Shown here piece after piece: positions 10,461-40,054 of a DNA stretch of 64,000 nt. The position numbers were made by a program, and so were the translations under genes. Positions within the stretch are counted from its first letter, which is position 1. Each line of letters begins with the position of its first letter. Source of the DNA: Escherichia phage RB69; sequence record NC_004928.1; one strand, 5' to 3'. The notes under the pieces were generated by a model, which saw nothing but the letters and a program-made list of their open reading frames with translations, was not told the origin of the DNA and ran no database searches.

Positions 10461-10501
10461 CCAACGAGAGAATTATACTCATCTCTCGAGAGTTTGTATA
10501 C
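10461..10501 (-). promoter_or_regulatory. early-type promoter cassette (CCAACGAGAG-aattatactc-CTCTCGAGAG-TTTGTATAC)
   Basis: -10 TATAAT within inverted repeat; about 85 percent identical to cassette at 40014..40054. Confidence 0.45.
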
Positions 10502-10740
10502 TATTTTTGAAGCATGGAAAGTAAGTAATTTGTATCACGTGGAGTAATATCAACACCCATATCAAAGATGCCTTTATAGATTGGGTATTTGTTTTCGGTT
10601 GTATGGAAGCTGAAACTATTTCCATCACAACTAACAGTAATAGCATCTGTTAAAATGTCATACTCAATCCTAACAATTGAATCCCCAATTTTAACGTCGA
10701 GGTGTTTTTTGAATTTGATAAAATCTAATTCTTGGGCCAT
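10501..10740 (-). CDS. hypothetical protein
   Basis: 79-aa ORF preceded by palindrome promoter at 10760..10803. Confidence 0.45.
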   Translation of the reverse strand: MAQELDFIKFKKHLDVKIGDSIVRIEYDILTDAITVSCDGNSFSFHTTENKYPIYKGIFDMGVDITPRDTNYLLSMLQK

Positions 10741-11018
10741 GATATTTTCCTCATTTTAAGACGATAGGAAGATAATAACATGTCTTCCCTATCGTTGTAC
10801 ATTATTAACCGAACTTTTTTGGCGCCTTTCCAGCCTTCGTACATAACTGCACAAGTCAGTAGTACAGCGTGCTGGCATTCTTTGTATTTGTAAATCCAGA
10901 ACCAGCGTAAGAAGTCTTCATCCTCAACGCCGGTGGATTTCATATTGGCAAAGAATTCGGCACGTTCTTCACGAAGCTTTTGCGATAACATAGATTCAGG
11001 ATTCATTTTGTGTTCCAC
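10725..11018 (-). CDS. hypothetical protein
   Basis: 97-aa ORF. Confidence 0.4.
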   Translation of the reverse strand: MEHKMNPESMLSQKLREERAEFFANMKSTGVEDEDFLRWFWIYKYKECQHAVLLTCAVMYEGWKGAKKVRLIMYNDREDMLLSSYRLKMRKISWPKN

Positions 11019-11144
11019 ACCCCATTTTCATCGATGAACTTAATCCAGTCATTTACAGACCATTTAGTTGTATCACCCTTTGGATTAACATTTAAAGTAT
11101 ATAATCCCTGCTTAAAAAGCATTCGTTTGATATTCATAATTTCC

Positions 11145-11438
11145 TCAACTGTAACGATAACATTCGTTAGCTTTACGTTTGGCTTCAGTATGAGAAGTAT
11201 TATAATCATAATCTTCTTTACTGTAAACATCTTTTTTCAACTTACGAACTTCTTTGCGGAGTTGTCGATTCATTTCATTCTTGACTTCAGAATCAACGCC
11301 TTTCATACGTTTCCATTTATCTGAGCGGAAAATGTTTTCAACCATGTCTTTGTGGCTAACACCGTCAGGAGCTTTACGTTTACCAATGTAATAAAAATCT
11401 TTAGAAGACAAATCTTTACGACGATACGTTTTACCCAT
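11145..11438 (-). CDS. hypothetical basic protein
   Basis: Track ORF 11145..11489 trimmed to MGKTYRRKD; lysine/arginine-rich. Confidence 0.4.
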   Translation of the reverse strand: MGKTYRRKDLSSKDFYYIGKRKAPDGVSHKDMVENIFRSDKWKRMKGVDSEVKNEMNRQLRKEVRKLKKDVYSKEDYDYNTSHTEAKRKANECYRYS

Positions 11439-11445
11439 AAGTACC

Positions 11446-11694
11446 TCAGAGATTGATTTCAATGATACGTTTGATATACTGCACATCACTTACTGAAAGG
11501 TCTTTAAGACCAATTGATTCTAAACGTTGTGCAAATGTTAACATATGGGTGAAGTCCAATTGCGTTTTAGTCATTTGATAAGTGTGAATGCCATTAGCAA
11601 ATTCAACCTTCAAATCGTTAATGGTGACGAAAATCATTCGTTCATCATTCATGTTAAGAACTAGAACAACTTTCTTTGAGTCTAAACTAATCAT
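11446..11694 (-). CDS. hypothetical protein
   Basis: 82-aa ORF. Confidence 0.4.
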   Translation of the reverse strand: MISLDSKKVVLVLNMNDERMIFVTINDLKVEFANGIHTYQMTKTQLDFTHMLTFAQRLESIGLKDLSVSDVQYIKRIIEINL

Positions 11695-11876
11695 AGTTTA
11701 ATTTCCTTCGCAATTGAACAGAAGATGCCACGGTCACAAATCATTTCACCGATTCCAGGATACTTGATTGAGCGATACCAAACATCTAGAGTTGAAACTT
11801 TGGTTATTATAATAACATTGCCGTTAACGGAATAATACTGATCAACCTTAATTTCTTTATCTTCAATTGTCATTTT
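11691..11876 (-). CDS. hypothetical protein
   Basis: Track ORF 11691..12035 trimmed to MTIEDKEIK; the upstream extension contains a promoter-like element. Confidence 0.35.
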   Translation of the reverse strand, partial: KMTIEDKEIKVDQYYSVNGNVIIITKVSTLDVWYRSIKYPGIGEMICDRGIFCSIAKEIKL

Positions 11877-12088
11877 GTTTTCCTCTGTGGTAGATGATGC
11901 TAATCTTAACATATCTATCGAGGATGTAAACTGTTTTATGAAAATATTTTTGATTTGAGAGGGGCACAAGGAGATAGTGAAGTGAAGATTCCAATGGATT
12001 ATATTAGAAATGAGATAAAGAAGACCAGGCGGCACCTGGTCAATCTTCTATGATATCAGAGTCGTATCCTAATGAAATCAAGGACTTT

Positions 12089-12644: not shown

Positions 12645-12646
12645 AA

Positions 12647-13447: not shown

Positions 13448-15261
13448 TGGTGTTTAACCCTATGCATGATTTCTTTATTTTTACCGAGATTAAATCCGCG
13501 TTCGTTCGGATTTCCCAAATAACCGCATGTTCTTCTTATGGTGTTCATCTTTTTAGGATCAGTTTCTCCACAAATAGAACAAACAAATCCGGTTTCAGTA
13601 GGAGTCATTTCATGGGTACTTCCGCATGTAAAACATTTATCTACTGGCATATTAACACCAAAATAATCTAAATGTTGTGCAGCATAATCCCACACGGCCT
13701 CAAGACCTTTTAAGTTATTTTTCATATCAGGAAGTTCAACATAAGAAATGTGACCACCTGTCGCAATGAAATGATATGGCGCTTCACGAGAAATCTTTTC
13801 AAACGGAGTAATATTTTCTTCTACTGAAACATGGAAACTATTAGTGTACCAGCCTTTATCAGTAACATCCTTTACACTTCCATATTTTTCTGTATCAAGT
13901 TTACAGAAGCGATAACAAAGGTTTTCAGCAGGTGTAGAATACAAGCTAAAAGCAAACCCAGTTCTTTCAGTCCATTGTTTAAGAAGAGCATTCATTTTAG
14001 TTAAAATTTCTTGTCCAATATCACGACCGACAAGAATATTCAATTCGTGAATACCAATGTATCCTAGGGACACTGAACTTCTACCATTTTTAAATAACTC
14101 AATTATGTCATCATCAGGTTTAAGACGAACCCCGAATGCACCTTCTTGGTAAAGAATAGGAGCAACAGTAGCTTTAACTCCTTTTAAGGAACTAATTCTA
14201 CACATCAAAGCTTCAAAACACAGGTCCATTCGCTCATCGAACAATTCAGTAAATTTCTGTTCATTGAACTGTGTTCCAATATAAGAATCTAACGCAATAC
14301 GAGGAAGATTCAGTGTTACAACGCCAAGATTATTGCGTCCATCAAGAATTTCATTGCCAGTTGAATCTTTCCATATGCTCAAGAAACTACGGCAACCCAT
14401 TGGAGAAACAGGAACTGAAGAACCGGTAATAGCTTTATTATTCTTAACCGAAATAATGTCAGGATACATTCTTTTGCTTGCGCACTCTAACGCAAGTTGT
14501 TTAATATCATAGTTCGGATCATCTTTATAAAGATTAACACCTTCTTCAACAAACATAACAAGTTTAGGAAAAATAGGAGTTATTCCATCACGACCAAGAC
14601 CTTTAATGCGGTTTTTAAGAATTGCTTTCTGAATCATTCGTTCAGTCCAGTCAGTTCCCGTACCAAATGTAATTGTTACAAAAGGCGTTTGTCCGTTTGA
14701 ACTAAAGAGAGTATTTACTTCATATTCATAAGCTTGGAATGCATCGTATACGTCTTTTTCTGTTTTAGACTGGGCATAATTCAACGCATCAGCGATTTGC
14801 CATTTTTCTGCATCCTCAATATGTTTTGCATAGGTGCGTTTAACATAAGGAGAAAGTACTTTATCTACATTAGCAAAAGTCGTTCCGCCGTATTGATGGG
14901 AAGCAACCTGTGCAGTAATTTGTGCCATAATTGCAGTAGCAACGCCAATAGATTTAGGCGTTTCAATTTGAGCATTGCCTAATTTAAATCCATTCTCAAG
15001 CATCCCCTTTAAATCGACTAAACAGCAATTGGTAAACGGAAGAGCAGGAGAATAATCAATATCATGCATGTGAATGATTCCGCTTTCATGCGCATGCATA
15101 ATAAAAGACGGGACCATATTTTTGGCAATGTGCTTAGACACAATACCAGCCATAAGGTCCCGTTGAGTTGGAAAAACACGAGAATCTTTATTAGCATTCT
15201 CGTTCAAAAGATCTTTATTAGTTTTATAAATTAATCCTTCAATTTCTTTTTCAATTTTCAT
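13444..15261 (-). CDS. nrdD: anaerobic ribonucleoside-triphosphate reductase NrdD (glycyl radical enzyme)
   Basis: 605 aa; C-terminal glycyl radical motif RTCGYLG; uninterrupted ORF. Confidence 0.9.
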   Translation of the reverse strand: MKIEKEIEGLIYKTNKDLLNENANKDSRVFPTQRDLMAGIVSKHIAKNMVPSFIMHAHESGIIHMHDIDYSPALPFTNCCLVDLKGMLENGFKLGNAQIETPKSIGVATAIMAQITAQVASHQYGGTTFANVDKVLSPYVKRTYAKHIEDAEKWQIADALNYAQSKTEKDVYDAFQAYEYEVNTLFSSNGQTPFVTITFGTGTDWTERMIQKAILKNRIKGLGRDGITPIFPKLVMFVEEGVNLYKDDPNYDIKQLALECASKRMYPDIISVKNNKAITGSSVPVSPMGCRSFLSIWKDSTGNEILDGRNNLGVVTLNLPRIALDSYIGTQFNEQKFTELFDERMDLCFEALMCRISSLKGVKATVAPILYQEGAFGVRLKPDDDIIELFKNGRSSVSLGYIGIHELNILVGRDIGQEILTKMNALLKQWTERTGFAFSLYSTPAENLCYRFCKLDTEKYGSVKDVTDKGWYTNSFHVSVEENITPFEKISREAPYHFIATGGHISYVELPDMKNNLKGLEAVWDYAAQHLDYFGVNMPVDKCFTCGSTHEMTPTETGFVCSICGETDPKKMNTIRRTCGYLGNPNERGFNLGKNKEIMHRVKHQ

Positions 15262-15744: not shown

Positions 15745-15790
15745 CTTAAATAGATAAGGGTATTTATAATTTAGTAAACGTTATAAAAGT
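15745..15790 (-). promoter_or_regulatory. promoter region upstream of gene 49 (late TATAAATA box plus early-like GTTTAC/TATAAA)
   Basis: forward TATTTATA at 15761..15768 gives TATAAATA on minus strand; GTTTAC 17 nt upstream. Confidence 0.4.
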
Positions 15791-15950
15791 CTCGATGAAA
15801 ACGTTTATATTGACGAATCATTTTCTTAGTAGGACGTGTTACTGAAATAATTGAAGTAGTCATAGTCGGATTGTTTGGAGCGCCAGTCATAACAAATTTC
15901 CAGGATTTTTGGCCATTTTTTCTTTCACCATAAAATAATTCAGTTTTCAT
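15771..15950 (-). CDS. small basic protein (59 aa), paralog of the disrupted copy at 16375..16546
   Basis: ATG with SD AAAGG; MKTELFYGERKNGQKSWKF...RPTKKMIRQYKRFHRDFYNVY; below the track length cutoff. Confidence 0.4.
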   Translation of the reverse strand: MKTELFYGERKNGQKSWKFVMTGAPNNPTMTTSIISVTRPTKKMIRQYKRFHRDFYNVY

Positions 15951-15959
15951 AATAAACCT

Positions 15960-16373
15960 TTAACTTAAACGTCTTTCTAAATATTCAATGTATTCCGCTG
16001 CGGCTTGCATCAGATTACCTTCATAACCGTCATTATTTTCTTGGGCGGCTAATTTAGCTAAAGCATAAGAAATACGTTCACCTTCGAATTCGCCAAGTCC
16101 ACCATCACAAACTACTTGGTCAATTTCTTCGAGTTCATCTATTGAATGGGATTCCCAGAAGCACCAAAGAGAAGTATCACGGTCATAGATGCAAAGTTTC
16201 TCACCTGTGTTCAACATCACTTCGATAATGCCATGGTCGCCATAACCATCTTCGGTAGTAGTACCAATTACCTTGATGATTGTTCCTTTCTTTAATTCAG
16301 GAAACTTGACTTGTAGTTCTTCATCTTCTTTAACAATCTTGAACCATTTACCGCGAGTTTCAGAAATATTCAT
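15960..16373 (-). CDS. hypothetical protein (pin position)
   Basis: Track ORF 15960..16511 trimmed to MNISETRGKW; the N-terminal extension is another gene in a different frame. Confidence 0.5.
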   Translation of the reverse strand: MNISETRGKWFKIVKEDEELQVKFPELKKGTIIKVIGTTTEDGYGDHGIIEVMLNTGEKLCIYDRDTSLWCFWESHSIDELEEIDQVVCDGGLGEFEGERISYALAKLAAQENNDGYEGNLMQAAAEYIEYLERRLS

Positions 16374-16374: not shown

Positions 16375-16546
16375 TCAATATTCTCTATAAAAGTTACGAT
16401 GAGAACGTTTAGCTTTGCGAAGCTGACGTTTAGTAGGACGAACTGTAAATGGTTGTCCAGAGAAAAAATTCGGATCGGTTTTAATAAGCAAATACCAATC
16501 ATGTTTGCCATTTTTTTAATAAACGGTACAATAATTTAACTTGCAT
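16375..16546 (-). pseudogene. frameshifted paralog of the 15771..15950 small basic protein (A7 homopolymer)
   Basis: ATG at 16546 reads MQVKLLYRLLKKWQT-stop; a +1 shift at the A7 run restores NGKHDWYLL...RPTKRQLRKAKRSHRNFYREY, homologous to the intact copy. Confidence 0.35.
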
Positions 16547-17028
16547 AATAATCTCTTCCCATTTCCATATCAATTAATTCATTTATTGAAGGTTCATCAT
16601 AACATGGTTCTTCGTCGTTGTAAACCGTTTCGACGTCTGGCTCGACAGTCTCCCATCGAGCAGAATACCACGGTTTAACCCCGGAGTTTATTGAGCTCTT
16701 CATAATCAATCCAGGATTCTAGCCCTGACGGCAGGTCACATTCAATGTTCCACAGAAGCTCTTCAATGGCTTGCAGGCGATTATATTCTTCAACGGTAAT
16801 GGTAACCATTGGTGCAACCGGTTCTGCCTTTTTAACCATCATATCGTTCATCAGGACGTAAAGGTCATCACGAACGACAGTGTCCGTTCCAACCCCATGA
16901 TTTGGCTTCGTAAGCTAATGATGAAGGGAGCACATTTAAAACTTCAAAAATAGTTGGAGCATCAGGACCAAGTTCATTGGCACAAACTTCGTATACATCT
17001 TGGAAATCTTTAAGATTTAATGAATATG

Positions 17029-18947: not shown

Positions 18948-18975
18948 AATGTTTTCCTCTCGTTAAGATAGAAAG

Positions 18976-19006
18976 ATTATACTCCAACCATCCTTGGTTG
19001 TAAACT
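18976..19006 (-). promoter_or_regulatory. early promoter cassette (TATAAT; CCAACCA-tcc-TTGGTTG palindrome; GTTTACA -35)
   Basis: minus strand reads GTTTACAACCAAGGATGGTTGGAGTATAAT. Confidence 0.5.
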
Positions 19007-19069
19007 GTTTTTATGATTTTAATGCATTCATTGCGTTAAAAAGTTTAGAATACTGCAACTGGAGATTCG

Positions 19070-19972
19070 TTACAACACTTTGAGCATCACGGAGCTTAGC
19101 TTGTGCCTTGTCCAGTTCAACAGACAGTTGGTCCACGGGGGCTTTGATTTGGTTGTAATGGTAATCTTCGGCCGGAAGAAGGCATTAGAACATTTAGTTT
19201 TACTGCCGACAGTTTGCACACATTTGGCAACCTTTAACATACCAGGTTGTGCCGGAGCTGGAGAATATGCACCTAAGACTTCGGCATTACCAACTGGTGT
19301 TGCAGTAATTGACGCTTCGAACGTTGCATTTTCCTTTTTAAGATTTTGATAGTATTCAGAGTCTTTGTGCCACCATGGCGCAGGAACCTTTTTACCAATA
19401 GATACACGAGCCTGGATAGCAATATGACCCTTATTCTTGATGGGGTCGATAATATTAAGCTCACGAGAATAAATTGCTTTAATCTGGTGGATATTATCAC
19501 CTAACACTTCCAACGCTTGGTGGAATACACGAGCAACGTTATCATTCTTAGGTTTATACGTAAGAGTGAACTCATTCTCACTGATAACCATGATTTCCAA
19601 CTTATCGTAAGTATATTTCAAATGTTTCATGTTAATTGCTTGAGGACGAATACGAGAAGCAATGGCCAACAGATTGTTAAGGTTATTTCTGAACTGTTTA
19701 GCAAAATATTGTCCGTAGCCGCCGATACAAAAATTACGAAGTTTCTGTTTGGCTAATAAACGGCTGAACTCACCATTTTTAATGAACTCTTTAACGGGTG
19801 TGTTAGTAACGCATTCAAATTGAGTAAACTTACGAGAATTAATCCCATAATATGAACAGATTTCCTCAATCTCTTCAGGAGTCTTTACAGGCATACGGAT
19901 AGGATTAGGTCCTGGAGTATATGCGTTCGAGGTAAATTCTTTGATAAGTTCTCTACGTGTAATAGAAGCCAT
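19070..19972 (-). CDS. hypothetical protein (300 aa)
   Basis: Long ORF with its own promoter cassette. Confidence 0.55.
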   Translation of the reverse strand: MASITRRELIKEFTSNAYTPGPNPIRMPVKTPEEIEEICSYYGINSRKFTQFECVTNTPVKEFIKNGEFSRLLAKQKLRNFCIGGYGQYFAKQFRNNLNNLLAIASRIRPQAINMKHLKYTYDKLEIMVISENEFTLTYKPKNDNVARVFHQALEVLGDNIHQIKAIYSRELNIIDPIKNKGHIAIQARVSIGKKVPAPWWHKDSEYYQNLKKENATFEASITATPVGNAEVLGAYSPAPAQPGMLKVAKCVQTVGSKTKCSNAFFRPKITITTKSKPPWTNCLLNWTRHKLSSVMLKVL

Positions 19973-19998
19973 TTTATATTCCTCATGTTGAAAAATTT

Positions 19999-20029
19999 AT
20001 TATACTCCAACCATCCTTGGTTGTACATC
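19999..20029 (-). promoter_or_regulatory. early promoter cassette, near-identical to 18976..19006
   Basis: same CCAACCATCCTTGGTTG palindrome and TATAAT. Confidence 0.5.
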
Positions 20030-21023
20030 ATTCCTTAAGAAGTTTTACTACTTGAATAAGATTAGCTCGTTCTGTTTTATTTTTACCGTTTAAGCCTGCT
20101 AATCGTGAGATTTCATCGTCAGTCTGTTGAATAGTTACATTAAGTTCGTTAATCAAAGCTTCAAAGTATTTGATTTGCTCAGCATGTTTTGATTCAAATT
20201 TCTGAACCGGAATAACGTCTTGGTTTAGTTCGTCAATAAGGTCTTTAAGAGCATCTTCTTGGTTGATATCATATTCAACTTCTTTTATTTCTTCAACGAG
20301 CTCGTCTTTATATCTAACGTCTTTTAGTCCTGGTGCTGGTCCTGAAATCTCTTCTTTAAGAGTACAAACATACCCAATACGGTATCCAATGCCGTCTCGC
20401 TTGATATCAACTTCGTCGATAAATCCACAATGTTTAAGACCAGAGCCGATTAGGTTAAAATATCCTTGACGTCGTCCTTCAAACGTTACACGAACTACTA
20501 AGACGGTTTTGCCACCGACCTTTTGAAGCTCACATTTATAAAAGTCAGTTGAACCTGAATAACGTGGATGAGTTTTAAAGTTCATCTGACGATCTAGGCC
20601 CATTTGTAAACGTGCTGATACGGCCAGAAAACGTGTTTGGTTCTCGTTAAGATGAGCAACAATCTGTTTCAAAGGCATTTTACCCTGTTCACGTCCGAAC
20701 AAATCAGTACGTCCTAGATTACGCAGGATGTTGTTAGAGTTAATCATCGACAGAACGTTAAGTTTATTCAGCGCGCTGAAGATTCCATCAGCCATTGATT
20801 TTCCATAACCTTTACACGCTTTAATAAGTGCTCGCGGCAGATTAGTATAGATTTCAGACGGCATATGAAAATCAAATTTACTAGTCAGTAATTGATGAAC
20901 TTGGATAGCAATTTGCTCATAATTAAGTGCTCTGCGATCGTTATGGTCTTTAAACCACACTTTAATCTGTGAAGCACATAAACCGTTAATTTCATGTTTT
21001 ACCGCATCAGATGTAATGCTCAT
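20028..21023 (-). CDS. hypothetical protein (331 aa) with C-terminal coiled coil
   Basis: Long ORF; promoter-like element upstream at 21059..21085. Confidence 0.55.
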   Translation of the reverse strand: MSITSDAVKHEINGLCASQIKVWFKDHNDRRALNYEQIAIQVHQLLTSKFDFHMPSEIYTNLPRALIKACKGYGKSMADGIFSALNKLNVLSMINSNNILRNLGRTDLFGREQGKMPLKQIVAHLNENQTRFLAVSARLQMGLDRQMNFKTHPRYSGSTDFYKCELQKVGGKTVLVVRVTFEGRRQGYFNLIGSGLKHCGFIDEVDIKRDGIGYRIGYVCTLKEEISGPAPGLKDVRYKDELVEEIKEVEYDINQEDALKDLIDELNQDVIPVQKFESKHAEQIKYFEALINELNVTIQQTDDEISRLAGLNGKNKTERANLIQVVKLLKE

Positions 21024-21085: not shown

Positions 21086-21613
21086 TTATGCGTGAACCGT
21101 CTTTAAACGTTCTTCAAATTTCCGAAGAGTACTAATACGTTCTGCTTTCTGTTTTGTATAGTTTGCAATACGTTCTGAAGTGAGAGCGTATCGTTCGTTT
21201 ACTGTTTCTTTCATGAAGTCAGGGATTTCACGAGAATCTCCAATTTCATCAAACTTATCGAGTACTGCCTGGTCTTCAGCAATTAAATTTTCGTACATCT
21301 CGATATCTTTCTTAATAAACTCGATATCTTCCTGGGTTACTTTGGATAAACGAGATGCTTTATCCTTTTTGTGCTGTTCGTTAGTTTCACGAGACCAGAA
21401 TAATGTACGTTTTTTGTTAGTGTTTTTGTAGACTTCCACAATTCCAACTGAATCGATGATAACAATCCAATTCCAGCGAGATTTGAAAATCTGACCTCCG
21501 TCCACGGTAATCTCGTTACCATAAGCAACGTCATTAAAGAACTTGCTTTGTGCTTCAGATTTAAATTTACCGTCGTTATAATTTACCAGGTTGAAAATAT
21601 CTTTAGCGTTCAT
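21086..21613 (-). CDS. hypothetical protein
   Basis: 175-aa ORF preceded by promoter cassette at 21632..21670. Confidence 0.5.
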   Translation of the reverse strand: MNAKDIFNLVNYNDGKFKSEAQSKFFNDVAYGNEITVDGGQIFKSRWNWIVIIDSVGIVEVYKNTNKKRTLFWSRETNEQHKKDKASRLSKVTQEDIEFIKKDIEMYENLIAEDQAVLDKFDEIGDSREIPDFMKETVNERYALTSERIANYTKQKAERISTLRKFEERLKTVHA

Positions 21614-21631
21614 GTTTTACCTCCAGTAGTT

Positions 21632-21670
21632 GATAGGTCTATAATAACATAACCATAGACCTTGTAAACA
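21632..21670 (-). promoter_or_regulatory. early promoter cassette (TAGGTCTA..TAGACCT palindrome, GTTTACA)
   Basis: minus strand GTTTACAAGGTCTATGGTTATGTTATTATAGACCTATCAA. Confidence 0.5.
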
Positions 21671-21671
21671 A

Positions 21672-21947
21672 CTAAAAGAAACTTTTTTCGGTATTTTTTC
21701 CACTGAACCAAACTGACTTCGGGATTTTTTGTAATTTTTCAGATTTAAGTTTCTCTTCCTGTTCTTTCTTATATACACCCTTGTCGTACTGGAGCATCTC
21801 TAGGGCATTCTTTTGCAAACGATCTAAGGTAATTAAGGCTTTAGTTTTTCCTTTCAAGGAAGAGTCTTGGCGAACCTCCTCGCTATATTGTTCTGTTGCA
21901 CTAATCATACGATGGGCATATAATTCACGACGGGCTTGGATATTCAT
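21672..21947 (-). CDS. hypothetical protein
   Basis: 91-aa ORF. Confidence 0.45.
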   Translation of the reverse strand: MNIQARRELYAHRMISATEQYSEEVRQDSSLKGKTKALITLDRLQKNALEMLQYDKGVYKKEQEEKLKSEKLQKIPKSVWFSGKNTEKSFF

Positions 21948-21997: not shown

Positions 21998-22948
21998 TTA
22001 TCCAGTTGAAATAAAATCTGCTACATAAAGAGCCGTACGTAATGATACATTGCGAAGACGAGATACGTTAGCCTTCATCCAGGACAATGCTTTGTACGTT
22101 TCTGCATCCGTCAGGCCACGTTTCTGCATCATGTCAGTAGATAATATTACATCTTCAACTCTGACCATAATCTCTTCATTAGAGTGTACTCCAAGGTCCA
22201 AATACACTGAACGAGATACTAAAGCTTGAAGGTGTGGAGCAAGTTTCGAACCGCGTTCTAACTCTTTATCGATATCAACGTTTGTAATGAAAACGATAGT
22301 ACCTTCAAACTCAAATTCTTTATCGATACCCTTATCATCAAGATAAGATGATGCAGTGCTCCAGCAAACTTTGCGTTTATCACCAGTATCTAATGCGGCT
22401 TTAAGAAGGTTCAAGATATCCATATCTGAGAATACGTCAACGTCGTCGATTAAGAGAACACTGTCTGCATCACGGTTGAGCCAAAGTTGTTCGTAAAGGC
22501 CAATACCAGAGATTTTGCCATTAATGCTTTTGTATTTGATGAAACCATTATCATTAGCATTATTAAGCGCTTTATCCAGAGAATACGTCTTACCAATACC
22601 TGCTGCACCTGAAATAATGAGTGAACGAATTTTGCCATCAATAATGCCATTCGTCATCATGTTCATTACTTTAAAGCGTTTGTTGATACGAGTTTTCATA
22701 TCTTCAGCGCTTTCAACAACTGCAACTGGTGATGTCTCAACTCCTTCCATTACGATGTCTGATTTGAAGACCCATACTCCACGTTCAGAACCATCAATCA
22801 TACCGAAAATTTTACCGTCACCTAAGTGGGAACATTCAGGATTAAGCTTTGCCGGGAACCATGTCTTTGTGGCAACATAAGAACCAGAGATTTCGTTATT
22901 ACGATAGATACCTTTTTTGATTTGAACGTTGAACATTTTATTCTCCAA
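21998..22948 (-). CDS. AAA-type P-loop ATPase
   Basis: Walker A GAAGIGKT, Walker B LLIDDVDVF, sensor-like FITN; 316 aa. Confidence 0.6.
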   Translation of the reverse strand: MENKMFNVQIKKGIYRNNEISGSYVATKTWFPAKLNPECSHLGDGKIFGMIDGSERGVWVFKSDIVMEGVETSPVAVVESAEDMKTRINKRFKVMNMMTNGIIDGKIRSLIISGAAGIGKTYSLDKALNNANDNGFIKYKSINGKISGIGLYEQLWLNRDADSVLLIDDVDVFSDMDILNLLKAALDTGDKRKVCWSTASSYLDDKGIDKEFEFEGTIVFITNVDIDKELERGSKLAPHLQALVSRSVYLDLGVHSNEEIMVRVEDVILSTDMMQKRGLTDAETYKALSWMKANVSRLRNVSLRTALYVADFISTG

Positions 22949-23006
22949 ATTTACTCATTTCGTTTCGATAGGTCTATAATAACATGTTTAAAGCAAAAGT
23001 AAACAA

Positions 23007-23225
23007 TTATTTGCGACGAGATTTTTTGGTAAGAGGTTGAAAGAACACTGCTTTACCAGCAGGAGTCAAAGTGACTCGTAATGCATTACCGATTCCCAAG
23101 GATGCTTTAACCAGACCTTTAGATTTCAGTTCACCGAATGCTTGACGTTGGTCTGCATCACGAGTGTTAACCATAAGACCTTTATCACCAGCTTCACGAA
23201 TCATTTCTAACATTTTGGTTTTCAT
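23007..23225 (-). CDS. hypothetical protein
   Basis: Track ORF 23007..23282 trimmed to MKTKMLEMI with SD AAGAGGAG. Confidence 0.45.
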   Translation of the reverse strand: MKTKMLEMIREAGDKGLMVNTRDADQRQAFGELKSKGLVKASLGIGNALRVTLTPAGKAVFFQPLTKKSRRK

Positions 23226-23244
23226 TTTGTTCTCCTCTTGTTTT

Positions 23245-23282
23245 GATAGGTCTATAATAACATATCCTAAAAGCATGTACAC
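23245..23282 (-). promoter_or_regulatory. early promoter cassette (GATAGGTCTATAATAACAT)
   Basis: shares the GATAGGTCTATAAT core with 22967..23005 and 21632..21670. Confidence 0.45.
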
Positions 23283-23290
23283 TACTTTTT

Positions 23291-23327
23291 AAAAATATTT
23301 TGACCCCCTAAAGGGCCCGAAGGCCCT
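23291..23327 (-). terminator. putative terminator hairpin (GGGCC-UUCG-GGCCC)
   Basis: GC stem with tetraloop directly downstream of ORF 23330..24319; weak U-tract. Confidence 0.4.
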
Positions 23328-25341: not shown

Positions 25342-25636
25342 TTAAAGTTTCAACAAAATTCACCAAATCATTCAGACAAGCATCAACCTGATTTTCATAA
25401 AAGTCTTCGTTATCATTTACTGCATGATAAGCTACATCATTCAAATCTGATTCGGCCTCACGTAAGTGAGGGATAAGTTCCATCAATTTATTAGCTTGTT
25501 CACGGGTCATTTTACCATACTCGCTTCAATAAGATTAATTACACCATTTACCATGTTATACGTAAACATCGGATAATTGTATTGTACTATAACATAAGCG
25601 ATAAGCAAAAGTTTCATTTTGTTCTCCATTTGTTTT

Positions 25637-25676
25637 GATAGGACTACTATAACATAGTCCTACCAAGATGTAAACT
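25637..25676 (-). promoter_or_regulatory. early promoter cassette, canonical copy (GTTTACA-n6-TAGGACTA-tgttatag-TAGTCCTA)
   Basis: 8-bp perfect inverted repeat flanking the -10 region; GTTTACA -35. Confidence 0.5.
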
Positions 25677-25908
25677 ACCGATTGTGTTTTAAATGTTGAT
25701 AAAGTTCTTCAACTTGTTTAGGGTCCAAAACAATTAAGTCATTTTCTTGGCGAAGATAATTCCATCCCTTATCCCCAGGGCCATTTTTACAAAACATCAC
25801 CGTCGTCATATCATCATCAGCGCTTTCAGGTAAAAGTTTAAGTACACCGTCTTCAGATTTTCCAGTATAATCGTAAAGCATAATGTCCTCACATAATCTC
25901 GTTAACAT
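25675..25908 (-). CDS. hypothetical protein
   Basis: 77-aa ORF. Confidence 0.45.
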   Translation of the reverse strand: MLTRLCEDIMLYDYTGKSEDGVLKLLPESADDDMTTVMFCKNGPGDKGWNYLRQENDLIVLDPKQVEELYQHLKHNR

Positions 25909-26068
25909 ACATTTGCAATTCGGTGTGGGCGTCGGCCATCTTTTTCATAGCTCTGTTAATGTCGATGTCTCCATCTTCGCAACCATGAGCATTTTCCCAA
26001 TCGGATACAGAATTAGCATACTCTTCAATCAAAAACATCAACTTAGAAATCTTTTCTTTACGTGTCAT
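25889..26068 (-). CDS. hypothetical protein
   Basis: Track ORF 25889..26137 trimmed to MTRKEKISKL with SD GAGGAG. Confidence 0.4.
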   Translation of the reverse strand: MTRKEKISKLMFLIEEYANSVSDWENAHGCEDGDIDINRAMKKMADAHTELQMYVNEIM

Positions 26069-26134
26069 AACGTTCTCCTCTAGTAAGTAAGGACTACTAT
26101 AACACAACCTGAGGAGAAGTAAACTGATAGATGC

Positions 26135-26163
26135 CAAAAAGCCCCAACCTTTCGGAAGGGGCT
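26135..26163 (-). terminator. rho-independent terminator (GCCCC..GAAA..GGGGC then U5)
   Basis: hairpin plus T-run on minus strand downstream of rI; identical 28-nt element at 42081..42108. Confidence 0.55.
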
Positions 26164-26169
26164 AGTAAA

Positions 26170-29305: not shown

Positions 29306-29323
29306 TTTGATTTCTCCTCTAGT

Positions 29324-29363
29324 TGACAGGTCTATAGTAACACAACTAGAGGAGAAGTAAACT
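29324..29363 (-). promoter_or_regulatory. early promoter cassette upstream of regB
   Basis: GTTTAC ... TATAGA/GACAGGTCTATAG element. Confidence 0.45.
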
Positions 29364-29583
29364 ACTTTATTGATAAAATGAGAGTTAAGGCCCAAGATTC
29401 TTTAGATACTATATTGGCGAAGTGCCTCATCTCTTCGATTTGGCGACGACGCTGGTCAGCATAGTCTTCTTCGCCTTCTTCCTTACAATCTTCAAGGTCT
29501 TCTTCAAGATACTTTAAGTATTCACTACAAATTTTGTTGACCTTTTCCTGGAAGTCCAACAACCCAGTAATAGTAGAAGCCAT
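29362..29583 (-). CDS. hypothetical protein
   Basis: 73-aa ORF. Confidence 0.4.
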   Translation of the reverse strand: MASTITGLLDFQEKVNKICSEYLKYLEEDLEDCKEEGEEDYADQRRRQIEEMRHFANIVSKESWALTLILSIK

Positions 29584-31312: not shown

Positions 31313-31448
31313 ATGTTAGGTCCTTAGACTCGCTATGTAAACCCATTACCGCATTGCGCTCGACCTTATTACAGGTTGGAAAAGGTACATCACTCAGAGG
31401 ACTCGACGTTCATAAGGAGAGGTTGCGTTTCCCTTTATTAGGCAAGAA

Positions 31449-31778: not shown

Positions 31779-31846
31779 TTTGTTCCTATTGTTTTAATTT
31801 ATGTTATTCTTTAGGGAAGTTTTTAGAGTATGCATCATAAAGTTTA

Positions 31847-32119: not shown

Positions 32120-32138
32120 TTTTGTTTCCTTGTTTGTT

Positions 32139-32179
32139 TTGATAGAGTAATTATACCATATTAATACTTAAGCGTAAAC
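32139..32179 (-). promoter_or_regulatory. early promoter cassette (degenerate copy)
   Basis: GTTTAC ... TATAAT with GATAGAG core. Confidence 0.4.
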
Positions 32180-32182
32180 CGT

Positions 32183-32443
32183 TTAAGCTTGACCGCCAGA
32201 AATAATTCCGAAGTTGTTAAAATCGTATCCAATATCGTCAACATCTACTTTAGGACTTACTACAACATAAGCAATTTCACTACGTTTTGCATAGGTGTTG
32301 ATTTCTTTACCATCGCCACCTAAGAAAGAATACCCATTACGTTTTAATGAGCCAAAATCTTCCGCATCACCAATGAAAGCTTTAACTTTAAATTTAGGGT
32401 CTTTGGCATCTGCTTCAATGATAAATTCTTGATACATTTTCAT
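32183..32443 (-). CDS. internal-protein-like protein with capsid targeting sequence
   Basis: N-terminus MKMYQEFIIE. Confidence 0.55.
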   Translation of the reverse strand: MKMYQEFIIEADAKDPKFKVKAFIGDAEDFGSLKRNGYSFLGGDGKEINTYAKRSEIAYVVVSPKVDVDDIGYDFNNFGIISGGQA

Positions 32444-32449
32444 TTTTCC

Positions 32450-32863: not shown

Positions 32864-32921
32864 AATTTCCTCCAAGTAGTTGATGAATGTATAGTATCAA
32901 AGTCCTTGGAGGAAGTAAACA

Positions 32922-33218
32922 CTATTTTTCTGAAGCGCCTGAAATATATTTTTCAAGACGTTGTTTCATTAGCGAGCCGTTCTTAGCGATTTCTTCCGGT
33001 TTATCGCACATACGCAACAAGGCTTCAAGCTTAACGATATCACTGGTGCGCTCAAATTTGCGAGTATCTATCTTGCTAGCAAGTTCAGAAATACGTGCTA
33101 ATAGACTTTCAGCTTCAACCAAAGCTGCACCTAGCTTCGTGGCAAATGTGTCAGTAGCTTCGTTAAGAGATAGATTCTGATAAAAATTCATGTATGTTTT
33201 CATATATACGCTTTCCAA
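32922..33218 (-). CDS. hypothetical protein
   Basis: 98-aa ORF between e and denV. Confidence 0.4.
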
Positions 33219-35888: not shown

Positions 35889-35907
35889 AATATTCTCCTC
35901 ATGTTTA

Positions 35908-35946
35908 ATAGGACTACTATAATATAGTCCTATAATTGTGTAAACA
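35908..35946 (-). promoter_or_regulatory. early promoter cassette, canonical copy (TAGGACTA/TAGTCCTA)
   Basis: GTTTACA -35, -10 within 8-bp inverted repeat. Confidence 0.5.
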
Positions 35947-35957
35947 GTTTTGCGAAA

Positions 35958-36914
35958 TTATTTGAAAGGTTTTACCATATGGAAATTTTGTTTGAAACGT
36001 TTGACGTAATCGTCATGTCCTAAACTTTGGTACATACTTACTACTTTGCTGTAGTTTTCCCAGGCATACTCACGGAACCAACCAGAGGTGATGCTTGTAC
36101 AGACTTTTTCCAATGCCATCATAAAACTGGCTTCAGGGTTAATTTTAAAGTCATTAGGAATTTGAGAACGTTCTAATGCTAGTACACATGATTCTTCGTA
36201 TACACCAGCCAATTTGACCATTTCTGGTAATGATTCGAACTTCTCGCGTGAGGTCATGACTTCAGAGCCGTCTTTCATATAAAATGTATACGCTGGACGG
36301 TCTGTTAGTGCAATGGCTTCATGAATAGTATCATGGTCATATGTATAGATGTCATCTTTAAAGAACGCACTTTTAGAAGTGTCAAGAACCGGGTGAGCAT
36401 AGTTCAAGGTTTCTTTCTGGCGTTTCAGCATAATTTCAGTAAGTTCATCGTTCAGTGTAACACCTTTACCACGAAGATACTGAATATGGTTCATAGTCTT
36501 TAAAAAGAATGGATTATTTTTCTTGAAACGATGAGACATCTTAATTGCAAGACATATCTCAGGAGTTGCCCAGTAAAACCCGTTCAAACGGTCTTTAGTC
36601 AAATTTTTCTTGGCGTATTTTAAAAGGTCATAAGAAGACGTGAAATCTTCAGGAGTGAGTTCACCGATTAATTCACGGACATTAGTGATTGCCGGAACAA
36701 TATATGCTTCAAAATGAGTTTCGCGTCCATTATGGAAGCATTTGAAAACTTGGACATCAGGGTTATCTTGGTGAACATATACACCCATCATTTGATTTTT
36801 GAATGCATTCCAAGAACATTGGTCCGCAATAAAGTCCCAATCGCTATTTTTGATAGCGCTAGAATCAATAAGACCGTGATAGTGAAGTGCACGAGAACCA
36901 ATAACCAACATCAT
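35958..36914 (-). CDS. hypothetical protein (318 aa); weak nucleotidyltransferase-like or HD-like motifs
   Basis: N-terminal GSRALHYHG...SDWDF and later DHD; assignment tentative. Confidence 0.45.
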   Translation of the reverse strand: MMLVIGSRALHYHGLIDSSAIKNSDWDFIADQCSWNAFKNQMMGVYVHQDNPDVQVFKCFHNGRETHFEAYIVPAITNVRELIGELTPEDFTSSYDLLKYAKKNLTKDRLNGFYWATPEICLAIKMSHRFKKNNPFFLKTMNHIQYLRGKGVTLNDELTEIMLKRQKETLNYAHPVLDTSKSAFFKDDIYTYDHDTIHEAIALTDRPAYTFYMKDGSEVMTSREKFESLPEMVKLAGVYEESCVLALERSQIPNDFKINPEASFMMALEKVCTSITSGWFREYAWENYSKVVSMYQSLGHDDYVKRFKQNFHMVKPFK

Positions 36915-36942: not shown

Positions 36943-37194
36943 TTAAATTTCACGACATGCGATATCATATTCATCCCAGAGGTCATCGTGTGAAGCCTCT
37001 ACCAATGGAACGATTGTGCCGTTTATGTCTTCATTATAAGGGCAAATTGTACAGTGCGCATCTTCGAATCGGATGCCTTTGTGTTCAGATTTTTTATAAC
37101 GCATATCGAATATCTTTGCAAACTTTTCACGAGTAATGGTTTTAGCAACCACTTTGGTTCCGATACTTTCGTAATAAATCATTGTGGACTCCAT
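36943..37194 (-). CDS. hypothetical protein
   Basis: 83-aa ORF with CxxC..H motif. Confidence 0.45.
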   Translation of the reverse strand: MESTMIYYESIGTKVVAKTITREKFAKIFDMRYKKSEHKGIRFEDAHCTICPYNEDINGTIVPLVEASHDDLWDEYDIACREI

Positions 37195-37200
37195 TTAATT

Positions 37201-37240
37201 TGATAGGACTACTATAACATAGCCCTATCTTGTTGTAAAC
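37201..37240 (-). promoter_or_regulatory. early promoter cassette (canonical family)
   Basis: GTTTACA..TAGGGCTATGTTATAGTAGTCCTATCA. Confidence 0.5.
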
Positions 37241-37244
37241 TGTT

Positions 37245-37442
37245 TTAGCAAGAATAACTAGATGATACCCAGCCTTGAACAGTAATACTATTATTTGATA
37301 ACGAGATTGCGTCCTGGAGATTCAGACCTGCGTTATCTTCAATCCATAATGTAACTTCTTCGCGTTCTTCTGTTGCAATTTGGAACAGGTTTTCCAGAGC
37401 AGCTACTGCCGTACGTACAGCACAATCTAATTCGCGAGACAT
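37245..37442 (-). CDS. small protein, member of a tandem mosaic trio
   Basis: 65 aa; C-terminus GWVSSSYSC shared with 37452..37724. Confidence 0.45.
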   Translation of the reverse strand: MSRELDCAVRTAVAALENLFQIATEEREEVTLWIEDNAGLNLQDAISLSNNSITVQGWVSSSYSC

Positions 37443-37724: not shown

Positions 37725-37824
37725 AATGATTCCTTAGCACAACGCAGGAGACGAAACCCAAGCACCTTCAGTAATAACGTAACCATTACCTTCACGCTTA
37801 ACATCGCCACCATTATTTTCAATT

Positions 37825-38040
37825 TCATTTTTCATACCACTGGGATACGATTTCACCCTTAGGATAATAAGTACGACCGCTACCATAATCACCTACAGAA
37901 AATGATACGGCATATTGGTCTGCGATCTTTGTTGCTTCTTCTTCGATACGTTCAGCTTGATTCAGAAGTTTATAAATTGCATCTGAAGCGGATTTGGCAT
38001 CATTAAATTCTGGTACTTTAATTTCGATAATCTTACTCAT
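37825..38040 (-). CDS. small protein, member of a tandem mosaic trio
   Basis: 71 aa; YGSGRTYYPKG motif. Confidence 0.45.
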   Translation of the reverse strand: MSKIIEIKVPEFNDAKSASDAIYKLLNQAERIEEEATKIADQYAVSFSVGDYGSGRTYYPKGEIVSQWYEK

Positions 38041-38396
38041 TTTCTACATTCCTTAATAAAGTTTTCTATTGTTTCATTTTCACGTTTAGCTAGGAGTTCA
38101 TTATAACTAATCATTTGAGAAGCGTAAACCTTTTTATTTTTCTTGTTATGGTTTATAAAATCGTAGTAAAAATAGACTACAGTACAAAATGATGCGATGG
38201 ATGCAAAGGCTTGGGTATACCGTAAGTCCTGCCATTGGTCTGTGAATCCGCCAGTGTTTCCTATAAATCCTAACACAACGCCGTCAATAAGAAATCCAAC
38301 TAATCCAAAGGCAAATCCCATGCCAATACTCATAATAAAAATTAGAATGTTCTCACCAAGAGAAGGCCATACGGTTAAGAGTTGAGGCTTTTGCAT
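38037..38396 (-). CDS. membrane protein with C-terminal ENFIKECRK tail
   Basis: 119 aa, glycine-rich TM helices. Confidence 0.5.
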   Translation of the reverse strand: MQKPQLLTVWPSLGENILIFIMSIGMGFAFGLVGFLIDGVVLGFIGNTGGFTDQWQDLRYTQAFASIASFCTVVYFYYDFINHNKKNKKVYASQMISYNELLAKRENETIENFIKECRK

Positions 38397-38770
38397 CTTA
38401 TTTCCTTAACGAATTCCATAGCTTCTTCATATTCATACTTTTTAACAGCTTCATCATACTGAGCTTGGGCTTTTGCGCACTGAACTTTCCACTCACGAAC
38501 TCGAGCTCTGTGATGACGGCCTTGGTGCCAATATCCTACCCAATTAATAGGCATTAATAAAAACGGTACAATAAGTGGTGCGACGAACATTAATGAAAAT
38601 GCTGCATCAGACGATATAACTTCACTAGAATCTAAAACAGCTCCTATAATCATAAAGATTAAAAATGCTAAAGCTAAAATAGGGCCAAATAGTACTTCAT
38701 TAGGAATTAATTTACGTTTGTATTCGTATGCCCAGGGCTTACTTGGCATGTATAGGGTTGGCTTTGACAT
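38375..38770 (-). CDS. membrane protein with C-terminal EFVKEIRCK tail
   Basis: Track ORF 38375..38800 trimmed to MSKPTLY. Confidence 0.45.
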   Translation of the reverse strand: MSKPTLYMPSKPWAYEYKRKLIPNEVLFGPILALAFLIFMIIGAVLDSSEVISSDAAFSLMFVAPLIVPFLLMPINWVGYWHQGRHHRARVREWKVQCAKAQAQYDEAVKKYEYEEAMEFVKEIRCKSLNS

Positions 38771-39362
38771 ATTCTCTACATTCCATAATAAATTGCTCAA
38801 GGATTAAATTGTTAGTGAAATTAGGACTAACAACCATAGTTTCATAAAGCGCATCAATAGCACTTAAAGCATCAACTCTTTTAAGCAAAGGCTTGCCTTC
38901 ATACATAGTTTCAGAATCGATGATTAACGTAAAGTAATATTTTTTATTATCGACTAGAACTTCTGTATCGATATAAAACATATTAGACCTCAGAAGCTTA
39001 TCTCTAAAACCATAATAATCTTCAGAGCGTTCGCTGATATATTCCCATTCAGTGTTTAAACAACAAACAGACCATGTAGGAGCAACGAAATCAGTGAATC
39101 TAATATCATGGTCTGCAACTAGTTTAGCAATAGCTCCGATATCATGAATCATAATACCTGGGGCTAATAAAGATTTTCTGCTATGGCTAGCCGTTTTCTC
39201 GGTGGTCTCATAAGAAGACGACCAGTACCATTTACGTCCGGTTGCAACATATCGTAATGAATCAACTAAAGACGTAGGTGGATTTACCTTATCTCGGAAC
39301 TCTTCAAACATTGAGTCAATATCATTATTTTGGTTTCGCATGTTAACTCCTTTATTATCCAA
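38739..39362 (-). CDS. hypothetical protein with C-terminal EQFIMECREY tail
   Basis: 207-aa ORF. Confidence 0.5.
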   Translation of the reverse strand: MDNKGVNMRNQNNDIDSMFEEFRDKVNPPTSLVDSLRYVATGRKWYWSSSYETTEKTASHSRKSLLAPGIMIHDIGAIAKLVADHDIRFTDFVAPTWSVCCLNTEWEYISERSEDYYGFRDKLLRSNMFYIDTEVLVDNKKYYFTLIIDSETMYEGKPLLKRVDALSAIDALYETMVVSPNFTNNLILEQFIMECREYVKANPIHAK

Positions 39363-39390
39363 AAGGAGGACCGGAGTCCTCCGTATTATT

Positions 39391-39999
39391 TTATTTCAAA
39401 GAGTTAATATATTCTTGTACATCAGCAGAAGTGGTTTCGACACCAGCTGGAGTGCCATTGAACGTTTCAACACGAGTCAGAGTGTCTTCGATATCAACCT
39501 TAGTCAGTGCAGCGATTTCAATTACATCATCGGCCGTAGAGATACCAAGGGCATTGGCTGCTCGAGTTTCACGAATGTATTCGAGTTTGATTGCCAGATT
39601 CTGACGAGCATCATCAAGTTCAACCACCTTACGAGCAATTTCAATTCGCATAGCGGCATACCCGTCAGCTTTTGTATTAAGTTGTTCGGCAGTTCGACGA
39701 TACAGAAGACCAAGCTTAGCATGCATGGTAACATCTTGTCCTTCAGCCAAGAGCTTACGAATTTCACGTTCCTTAGAAGCGGCTTGCTTGTTCTTTTCAT
39801 TAACAAGTTCGCGAATACGTTTTTCTTCATTAATAGATTTAACAGAAGCCGTTTTTAGTTCTTTGATTTGGGTAATCAACTTATCTGCAGCTGCGTTATA
39901 CTGTTCTTCGACAGTCAGATTTTTAGCCATAGCAGTACCCAGTTTAGTGCGGATGAATTCAACAAGTTTCTTCAGTGTGTTCATATTATTACCTTTCAA
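39391..39999 (-). CDS. coiled-coil protein, possibly PspA/IM30-like
   Basis: about 200 aa, predominantly helical heptad-rich sequence; similarity to PspA is impressionistic. Confidence 0.45.
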
Positions 40000-40013
40000 T
40001 TGGTGGTTTATTA

Positions 40014-40054
40014 TCCAACGAGAGCATTATACTCTGCTCTCAAGAGTTTGTAAA
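40014..40054 (-). promoter_or_regulatory. early promoter cassette, near-duplicate of 10461..10501
   Basis: CCAACGAGAGCATTATACTCTGCTCTCAAGAGTTTGTAAAT. Confidence 0.45.

Follow-up and report, generated by a model that had tools for sequence, protein, structure and literature searches.

This article concerns a short repeated promoter element of Escherichia phage RB69, above all its two most similar copies, which lie upstream of the 55.2 homologue and of e.6. The window is the whole stretch of DNA that was analysed, 64,000 nucleotides of record NC_004928.1 corresponding to RB69 genome positions ~32001-96000, and coordinates are window positions throughout. It is ~95% identical to Mosigvirus phages and collinear with T4 36-78 kb (gene 55, nrdC.x, tk, vs, e.x, tRNA, ip genes, 57, 1 and 3), and its matches to the 55.x, nrdC.x, e.x, tRNA and ip regions of T4 give the elements a hyperplastic setting, in a part of the window where the genes are on the minus strand, as are all the elements. 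These are, with high probability, sigma70-type early promoters of the composite promoter-plus-stem-loop (PeSL) kind, which recombine and so remodel the small genes about them. The promoters at 10500 and 40054, named P(55.2) and P(e.6), are given here with their flanking genes and with three elements related by a second motif, together with their designations in Nolan et al. (2006).

10099..10434, minus strand: 55.2 homologue (111 aa, phrog_1475), downstream of 10500, syntenic in T4 and VR5
10453..10514, minus strand: P(55.2), Pe:42515; -35 TATACA (10500-10495), -10 TATAAT (10477-10472), arms CGAGAGA (10488-10482) and TCTCTCG (10471-10465)
10501..10740, minus strand: accessory open reading frame (ORF) of 79 aa, phrog_11314, between promoters 10801 and 10500
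18949..19019, minus strand: Pe:51019, predicted to drive gene 18003-18947 (T4 nrdC.3 position); -35 TTTACA (19004-18999), -10 TATAAT (18981-18976), hairpin CAACCA-agga-TGGTTG (19000-18985)
19972..20042, minus strand: Pe:52042, predicted to drive gene 19070-19972 (T4 nrdC.4 position); -35 TGTACA (20027-20022), -10 TATAAT (20004-19999), hairpin CAACCA-agga-TGGTTG (20023-20008)
39391..39984, minus strand: e.6 (197 aa, phrog_1203), downstream of 40054, syntenic in T4, T2 and VR5
40007..40068, minus strand: P(e.6), Pe:72069; -35 TTTACA (40054-40049), -10 TATAAT (40031-40026), arms GAGAGCA (40041-40035) and TGCTCTC (40026-40020)
40055..40282, minus strand: accessory 75-aa ORF, RB69p144-like, phrog_1764, between promoters 40339 and 40054, missing in T2
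40497..40567, minus strand: Pe:72567, predicted to drive the 54-aa ORF 40329-40493; -35 TGTACA (40552-40547), -10 TACTAT (40529-40524), spacer hairpin CACCA-agga-TGGTG (40544-40531)

Anatomy and extent of the promoter family

On the minus strand the elements share one order, namely an A-rich upstream gene end with its stop codon, a -35 box of the form (G)TTTACA or TGTACA, a spacer of 16-18 nt, a -10 box of the form TAnnnT, and a Shine-Dalgarno (SD) sequence with an ATG ~30-60 nt past the -10. Written out, the first element is AAAAATAG-TATACA-aactctCGAGAGAtgag-TATAAT-TCTCTCGttggataataaaataaccGAGGaaaataatATG, that is, stop, -35, 17-nt spacer, -10, leader, SD and start, and the second, at 40054, has the same layout with the -35 TTTACA and the inverted repeat GAGAGCA..TGCTCTC. 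Directly next to the -35 boxes stand the upstream stops, TAG (10503-10501) and TAA (40057-40055), each preceded by A-runs. The features of T4-type early promoters are present (GTTTAC at -36 to -31, an A-rich stretch at -40 to -44, the TAnnnT -10 and a C-rich -3 to -1), the promoter at 10500 having the weaker -35 TATACA and a score of 8.9 in Nolan et al. (2006). Activity as sigma70-type early promoters is a prediction, made here and in that study.

The sequence-only reading, made from the letters of this DNA, had noted that a 41-nt element recurs with a few substitutions, and so it does: the element is exact at 10461-10501 and has one other copy in the window, with 6 mismatches (85% identity), at 40015-40055, its true start being one base from the 40014 first given. 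A search allowing 3 mismatches overlooks this copy, which needs a separate scan with more mismatches, and a repeat search (family D14) shows that the homology is longer, covering 62 nt (10453-10514 against 40007-40068) at 87% identity. The second motif, CCAACCATCCTTGGTTG, is exact at 18984-19000 and 20007-20023, with a chance expectation of 0.12, and has a partial copy, CACCATCCTTGGTG, at 40531-40544; its recurrence had also been noted, at 18976 and 19999, positions that turn out to be the ends of the adjoining -10 hexamers. A third and weaker relative of the 10500/40054 element, TAGAGTATAATTCT, lies at 31445-31481 on the minus strand, with 70% identity and no good -35; a deletion of 729 bp in KAW3E185 runs from it, on the left, to the promoter at 32178 on the right.

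The main pair is the edge of a much larger family. Two repeat families, D1 and D2, have 11 and 9 copies, and a position weight matrix (PWM) built from the repeat copies finds 23 strong sites between 10.5 and 45.2 kb, all on the minus strand, with zero sites on the plus strand of the window and zero in five Markov simulations. Together with three weaker sites these make 26, and all 26 coincide with RB69 early promoters of Nolan et al. (2006) at a constant offset of 32015, a single offset that identifies the window as RB69 ~32001-96000. The description of the repeats as promoter cassettes is thereby borne out, by the anatomy as well as by the family scan. A scan of IMG/VR with the promoter core returned 4 loci only. 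The remaining family members are as follows.

10746..10816, minus strand: Pe:42816, predicted to drive ORF 10501-10740; stem GATAGGGAAGA / TCTTCCTATC around the -10
11172..11242, minus strand: Pe:43242, weak early promoter
11875..11945, minus strand: Pe:43945, early promoter lacking a clear stem
16569..16639, minus strand: Pe:48639, early promoter lacking a clear stem
21613..21683, minus strand: Pe:53683, early promoter; stem AGGTCTAT / ATAGACCT around the -10
22948..23018, minus strand: Pe:55018, early promoter (23003), downstream member of a promoter-ORF-promoter cassette
23226..23296, minus strand: Pe:55296, early promoter (23281), upstream member of the 23003/23281 cassette
25619..25689, minus strand: Pe:57689, early promoter of the main type, family D1; stem TAGGACTA / TAGTCCTA
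26068..26138, minus strand: Pe:58138, early promoter
29306..29376, minus strand: Pe:61376, early promoter; homology to two relatives ends at 29366
32123..32193, minus strand: Pe:64193, early promoter, right end of the 729-bp KAW3E185 deletion (31452/32182)
32864..32934, minus strand: Pe:64934, early promoter
35889..35959, minus strand: Pe:67959, early promoter (35944); stem ATAGGACTA / TAGTCCTAT
37184..37254, minus strand: Pe:69254, early promoter of the main type; stem with one mismatch
38073..38143, minus strand: Pe:70143, weak early promoter
40284..40354, minus strand: Pe:72354 (40339), predicted to drive ORF 40055-40282; left stem arm degraded
40866..40936, minus strand: Pe:72936, early promoter; stem GGGCTTAT / ATGAGCCC around the -10
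41204..41274, minus strand: Pe:73274, early promoter (e.8 homologue)
44389..44459, minus strand: Pe:76459, early promoter (44444), chimera of two KAW3E185 promoters
44742..44812, minus strand: Pe:76812, early promoter; 10-bp stem GATAGGACTA / TAGTCCTATC
45117..45187, minus strand: Pe:77187, early promoter; stem AGGATGAT / ATCATCCT

Could so close a match be no more than the generic promoter consensus, or chance? A generic sigma70 scan of the window is uninformative and in that sense leaves room for this, since it returns 76 sites against 72 expected in shuffled sequence. However, copies with at most 6 mismatches are expected only ~5e-10 times in the window, ten Markov-simulated windows held no 41-mer match within 14 mismatches, and the 10500/40054 pair heads all 253 promoter pairs of the window, with 52/62 positions identical in the pairwise alignment and 32/38 once the two hexamers are set aside, so that the similarity extends beyond the generic consensus. 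The mismatch statistics, the pair ranking and the one-sided PWM scan refute this explanation, to which we attach next to no credence.

A remnant of the duplication of a gene with its promoter, whether tandem or dispersed, is another conceivable source of the repeats, and the adjacency of the promoters at 19004 and 20027, which are neighbours 1023 bp apart, is what one might expect of it. The main pair, however, is 29.5 kb apart, and the homology ends at the upstream stop codon and within the downstream leader. In BLASTP comparisons no significant match links the two genes downstream of 10500 and 40054, the two genes upstream of them, or the three genes of the nrdC region with one another, and the flanking genes all fall in different PHROG families, all of unknown function; the downstream genes are therefore unrelated, as had been stated from the sequence, and homologous flanking genes, looked for as the sign of a tandem duplication, were not found. 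The lack of similarity between the flanking proteins excludes simple duplication, and a tandem or segmental event is refuted because the coding sequences on either side share no homology, which makes this origin highly unlikely for the repeats as a whole.

Two observations on the family stand apart from this argument. In most of the 23 promoters (e.g., 10501-10503, 40055-40057 and 25675-25677) the upstream stop lies 0-5 nt from the -35, and where that stop is TAG its G is often also the first base of GTTTAC; the UP-like, A-rich stretch thus belongs to the coding sequence, and this overlap may lie behind the lysine-rich C-termini of the upstream products (..LQK*, ..LIKK*). In addition, a promoter-like site at 4749-4811 on the minus strand, with a MotA-box-like CGCTTTA, 12 nt and TATAAT, coincides with the middle promoter that Nolan et al. 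(2006) place at RB69 genome positions 36773-36813, and an 8-bp stem, GATGTGGT..ACCACATC, encloses its -10; it resembles the middle-promoter stem-loops (PmSLs) reported by Comeau et al. (2014) in nt-1 only.

Stems around the -10 and in the spacer

The inverted repeat of these promoters lies either around the -10 (10500, 40054 and the main GATAGGACTA..TAGTCCTATC type) or in the spacer (19004, 20027 and 40552), and in the CCAAGGATGG variant the hairpin CAACCA-agga-TGGTTG begins in the last two bases of the -35 and extends into the spacer. A perfect stem of at least 6 bp surrounds the -10 in 9 of the 23 promoters, the other 14 having none or a degraded one, and the -10-bracketing stems come in six sequences: CGAGAGA, GAGAGCA, GGAAGA, AGGTCTAT, (GA)TAGGACTA and AGGATGAT. 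The stem measures 7 bp at 10500 and 7-8 bp at 40054, and P(55.2) and P(e.6) form one promoter subtype, GAGTATAAT followed by kCTCTCrTTGGATAATAAA.

When the register is left free, the arms of each promoter pair better with each other than with arms swapped among promoters (permutation p < 0.0002 for all, 0.004 without the main family); an earlier fixed-register test had caught two stem types only. RNA folding gives z scores of -1.55 for 10500 and -2.89 for 40054, and of -2.9 to -6.7 for the -10-bracketing stems of six other window promoters, with -2.2 for P(55.2) of VR5. The pairing is also kept between genera while the letters change, for P(nrdC.4) of T4 carries CCACA-agga-TGTGG, a compensatory version of the CAACCA-agga-TGGTTG of RB69, and the P(55.2) stem of VR5 (Dhakavirus) is GGGACCA..TGGTCC. 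Nine phages, RB69 among them, and one IMG/VR contig supply 13 P(55.2) and P(e.6) sequences, orthologues and paralogues, in whose alignment 93.9% of cells pair, as against at most 58% with a slid partner column, and both sides change in 3 of the 8 pairs.

What would such a stem do? Its right arm occupies about -7 to +3, so that, judging from the anatomy, a hairpin could form only in read-through RNA or in DNA and not in the promoter's own transcript. In an Rfam scan of the window only two tRNAs reach the gathering score, and the stems match no RNA family.

Junctions inside promoters

Comparison with related phages places the ends of gained, lost and replaced segments inside these promoters. JM17 (Mosigvirus) lacks the 79-aa ORF and the promoter at 10801, and the stop codon of its 55.3 homologue runs directly into P(55.2), the indel being bounded by two -35 boxes with its junction at the -35 of P(55.2). 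At the -35 of P(e.6), and exactly there, an 82-aa ORF accompanied by a CCAAGGATGG-type promoter of its own is inserted in JN02, TH58 and an IMG/VR contig (L016), and ~15 nt are common to both joints of this extra segment. Homology to T2 stops at 40060, resumes at 40334-40561 and again at 40916, and every one of these points is a promoter edge; homology to LH01 ends at 40319, within Pe:72354, and that to five relatives at 40873-40881, within Pe:72936. Furthermore, one chimeric promoter replaces the whole of 23281-ORF-23003 in five relatives, with a joint of 24 nt shared in the -10 region in four of them and a variant joint of 13 nt in phiEC1, and the RB69 promoter at 44444 is itself a chimera of the two promoters around an extra ORF of KAW3E185, with a 27-nt shared junction. 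Insertions of relatives at 35939 and 44426 are flanked by two promoter hits, and KAW3E185 has a full promoter-ORF-promoter cassette at both; at 35939 the cassette contains a 66-aa ORF and adds 274 bp, and the insertion of MRostami-2023e at this site, with its two promoter hits, measures 262 bp.

The promoter in front of one and the same gene also differs between lineages. P(e.6) is of the GAGTATAAT-CTCTC type in Mosigvirus and T2, of the main TACTATAGACCTATCAAAAC type in VR5 and of a third type in T4. At the 55.2 site PTE-Eco15 (its positions 1760-1790, equivalent to window 10461-10505) has a terminator hairpin, GGGCTTCGGCCC-TTTTT, in place of the RB69 promoter core, its homology picking up again at TTGGATAATAAAAT, and the T4 55.2 junction holds no promoter. 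Since the type at e.6 varies and the 55.2 site may hold a promoter, a terminator or nothing, neither gene requires a particular promoter type. P(55.2) itself occurs as three alleles: GAGAGAT..TCTCTC in the window, phiEC1, MRostami-2023e and mar005p1; a mixed allele, GAGAGCA..TCTCTC, in KAW3E185, EP02SG and TH58; and the full e.6-type allele, GAGAGCA..GCTCTC, in CEV1, JM17 and one IMG/VR contig. The mixed allele is no proof of exchange with P(e.6), as a stepwise compensatory path explains it equally well.

These observations divide the earlier proposal that cassette-mediated recombination moves genes between loci. Recombination through the cassettes stands, with junctions within promoters among relatives and differing P(e.6) types, and gene transfer between the 10500 and 40054 loci does not: 55.2 and e.6 are syntenic in T4 and VR5 (e.6 in T2 as well), and the 79-aa ORF, which tblastn finds in 133 phage records, occupies one place per genome in each. 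Its carriers among the matches listed are essentially Mosigvirus-type E. coli and Shigella phages, and it is absent from JM17, T4 and VR5. The movable parts are the small ORFs upstream of the promoters and the promoters themselves, not 55.2 or e.6.

A mechanism can be put together from these comparisons. With ~26 like-oriented 60-nt elements spread across the early region, the highly active homologous recombination of the phage would cross over between copies, be they in the same genome or in relatives that infect a cell together. Exchange of the unequal kind would delete or insert the small ORF between two copies and leave one chimeric but intact promoter, exchange at a single copy would swap the upstream ORF or the promoter itself, and the 10500/40054 subtype may in this manner have come to stand before two unrelated and positionally fixed genes, 55.2 and e.6. 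The analysis shows directly the anatomy, the family, the covariation of the stems, the junctions within promoters and the differing promoter types at one gene; promoter activity, a role for the stem, and the direction and enzymes of the exchanges are inferred.

Several results weigh against this interpretation, or at least narrow it. In a breakpoint comparison of the window with six Mosigvirus relatives, with endpoints counted in the 8-46 kb region, a promoter is touched in only 12 of 42 structural differences (~30%). Promoter intervals, 4.9% of the region, do receive 15 of the 80 indel endpoints (p = 6e-6); among intergenic endpoints, however, the share is 12/29 against 26% of intergenic bases, a modest excess. 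As viable indels must end between genes, much of the coincidence of promoters and breakpoints is expected anyway, and our case does not rest on enrichment. Other repeats serve as indel joints too, namely an N-terminal coding repeat of a small-ORF family and terminator copies, and no gene was seen shifted from one of the 10500/40054 loci to the other. The P(55.2) alleles fit exchange with P(e.6) and a stepwise compensatory path equally, and quasipalindrome mutation could be another source; templated mutation of this sort, classic in T4, could make perfect inverted repeats in the absence of selection for structure. The 5-6-bp spacer hairpins (-6.2 to -6.9 kcal/mol, z -0.3 to -1.5, with -0.6 and -1.5 for those of 6 bp) are insignificant by folding energy alone. 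A U-tract after the stems was not found, which sets them apart from classical intrinsic terminators and makes a role of the stem as terminator or attenuator of upstream transcription doubtful. Finally, experiments on the PeSLs of RB49 and phi1 demonstrated their activity as promoters and as terminators and the formation of mini-circles (Arbiol et al., 2010; PMC2839356), whereas in RB69 promoter activity is a prediction, and termination and excision as mini-circles by recombination between neighbouring elements are at most putative.

Two other explanations deserve consideration at this point. One holds that the 55.2 and e.6 promoters are kept alike by a shared function, such as strength, timing or contact with a factor, that the repeat at the -10 is regulatory and that recombination is incidental. 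The conservation of stems through compensatory changes across genera argues for selection on structure, as this explanation requires, and the right arm overlaps the CCTATC start-site region common to most of the promoters. However, the pair shares ~50-60 nt, including spacer and leader positions absent from equally good early promoters, and the free variation of promoter types at e.6 among T4, T2, VR5 and RB69, like the promoter, terminator or nothing at 55.2, does not sit well with a function that must be preserved; we consider it unlikely, if still deserving of attention. The other would make the -10-bracketing repeat a selected structure other than a terminator, for example a hairpin, formed in read-through RNA or in melted DNA, through which transcription from upstream would be coupled to use of the promoter, or a target favouring recombination at early promoters, and would have ongoing gene conversion keep P(55.2) and P(e.6) alike; this combination appears distinctly improbable to us. 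Recombination between PeSL-type promoters remains the reading that we favour.

The other joints in the region merit description in their own right. A conserved coding sequence for the N-terminus, MKTYQEFI..., is common to five small ORFs (31744-31784, 32085-32125, 32409-32449, 44702-44742 and 45075-45115), and we take it to resemble the capsid-targeting sequence of internal-protein genes in T4. Three relatives differ from the window by an indel of 349 bp between the copies at 44740 and 45090, with 24 nt shared at the joint, so that this repeat is a second kind of recombination joint beside the promoters. A terminator-like hairpin, AAAAAGCCCC..GGGGCT, occurs three times (26125-26164, 41384-41423 and 42070-42109), and phiEC1 lacks the 718-bp segment between the latter two copies (break 41403/42122).

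Still other differences are due to insertions of homing endonucleases and introns. An insertion of ~1.04 kb at 14723 (sites 14723-14726), in the nrdD homologue, is present in KAW3E185, TH58 and T4 and absent from the window, and the T4 nrdD intron with I-TevII sits at the matching place; at 13447 the same three phages have an insertion of 0.6-0.9 kb, at a place where T4 carries the homing endonuclease gene mobC and KAW3E185 a gene annotated as a group I intron endonuclease. Insertions of 243-416 bp at one exact point (27502-27506) in four relatives, where a larger replacement in TH58 also ends (27314/27502), contain a 70-aa ORF, no promoter and almost no shared joint sequence, and thus arrived by a route other than promoter cassettes. 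A 192-bp segment at 15767-15960, with a 59-aa ORF (15771-15950), has no aligned counterpart in KAW3E185, phiEC1, mar005p1 or TH58, and MRostami-2023e has at this place an unaligned segment of the same length (192 vs 193 nt); its joints are devoid of a promoter, and a 55-nt repeat lies nearby (15782-15836 / 16386-16440, 75% identity).

Comparison with known promoter-stem-loop elements

PeSLs were defined in RB49 and phi1 by Arbiol et al. (2010; PMC2839356) as strong sigma70-like early promoters with a stem-loop, mostly between the -35 and -10 or over the -10, in an element placed between stop and start codons; they lie in hyperplastic regions and mediate ORFan indels with crossovers inside the element. 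The RB69 elements are alike in their AT-rich stretch with upstream stop, in the SD and ATG at the 3' end and in the small unknown ORFs adjoining, and indels between close relatives likewise cross over inside the element to leave one chimeric element. They differ in that the RB49 promoters are near-perfect TTGACA-N17-TATAAT, as against (G)TTTACA or TGTACA for the -35 in RB69, and in that the RB49 stems typically pair G-runs with C-runs, while those of RB69 are AT-richer and varied.

Comeau et al. (2014; PMC4122927) extended PeSLs to T4/PST (TTTACW-N17-TAYWAT, with stems AGNA..TCNT) and to nt-1/KVP40, RB69 and Mosigvirus being outside their analysis. The RB69 elements belong to the same subgroup as those of T4/PST and follow the same consensus, their main stem TAGGACTA..TAGTCCTA contains AGGA..TCCT, and they too adjoin indels and replaced ORFs of the same early regions; however, the T4/PST stems lie just upstream of the promoter, according to the figure legend (PMC4122927), whereas those of RB69 lie around the -10 or in the spacer. 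The sites themselves are identical to entries of Additional file 3 of Nolan et al. (2006; PMC1524935), where Pe:42515, Pe:72069, Pe:51019, Pe:52042 and Pe:72567 are the five elements treated here; they appear there simply as promoters, the strings 'stem-loop' and 'palindrom' do not occur in the text of that paper, and the parts of it consulted do not discuss subfamilies or recombination.

Two further systems offer partial parallels. The hyperplastic internal-protein locus of T-even phages, which belongs to the region treated here, shuffles genes by recombination via short repeated motifs (Repoila et al., 1994, as cited in PMC4122927), for which the 1994 study gave no detailed mechanism according to Comeau et al., and the small-ORF family of the window resembles it in sharing N-terminal coding repeats that flank an indel. 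Lambdoid morons are likewise single accessory genes with their own promoter, and the moron model adds a terminator (PMC2839356); in that model, however, the regulatory sequences are not recombination sites, whereas the RB69 joints are inside promoters.

Judged by sequence features, the RB69 elements appear to have everything that defines a PeSL, with minor differences in stem sequences, in stem positions and in the missing U-tract. The phenomenon is already known: the mechanism is essentially the one published for PeSLs, and Nolan et al. had included the sites among the early promoters of RB69 in 2006. The value of the present analysis, with the idea published in 2010 and 2014, is its confirmation in the RB69/Mosigvirus lineage, where repeated promoter cassettes would serve as portable joints through which small genes are gained, lost and swapped while the expression of their neighbours is unbroken. 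To the earlier descriptions it adds six -10-bracketing stems with compensatory changes, three alleles of P(55.2), and a single junction that holds a promoter, a terminator or nothing in different phages.

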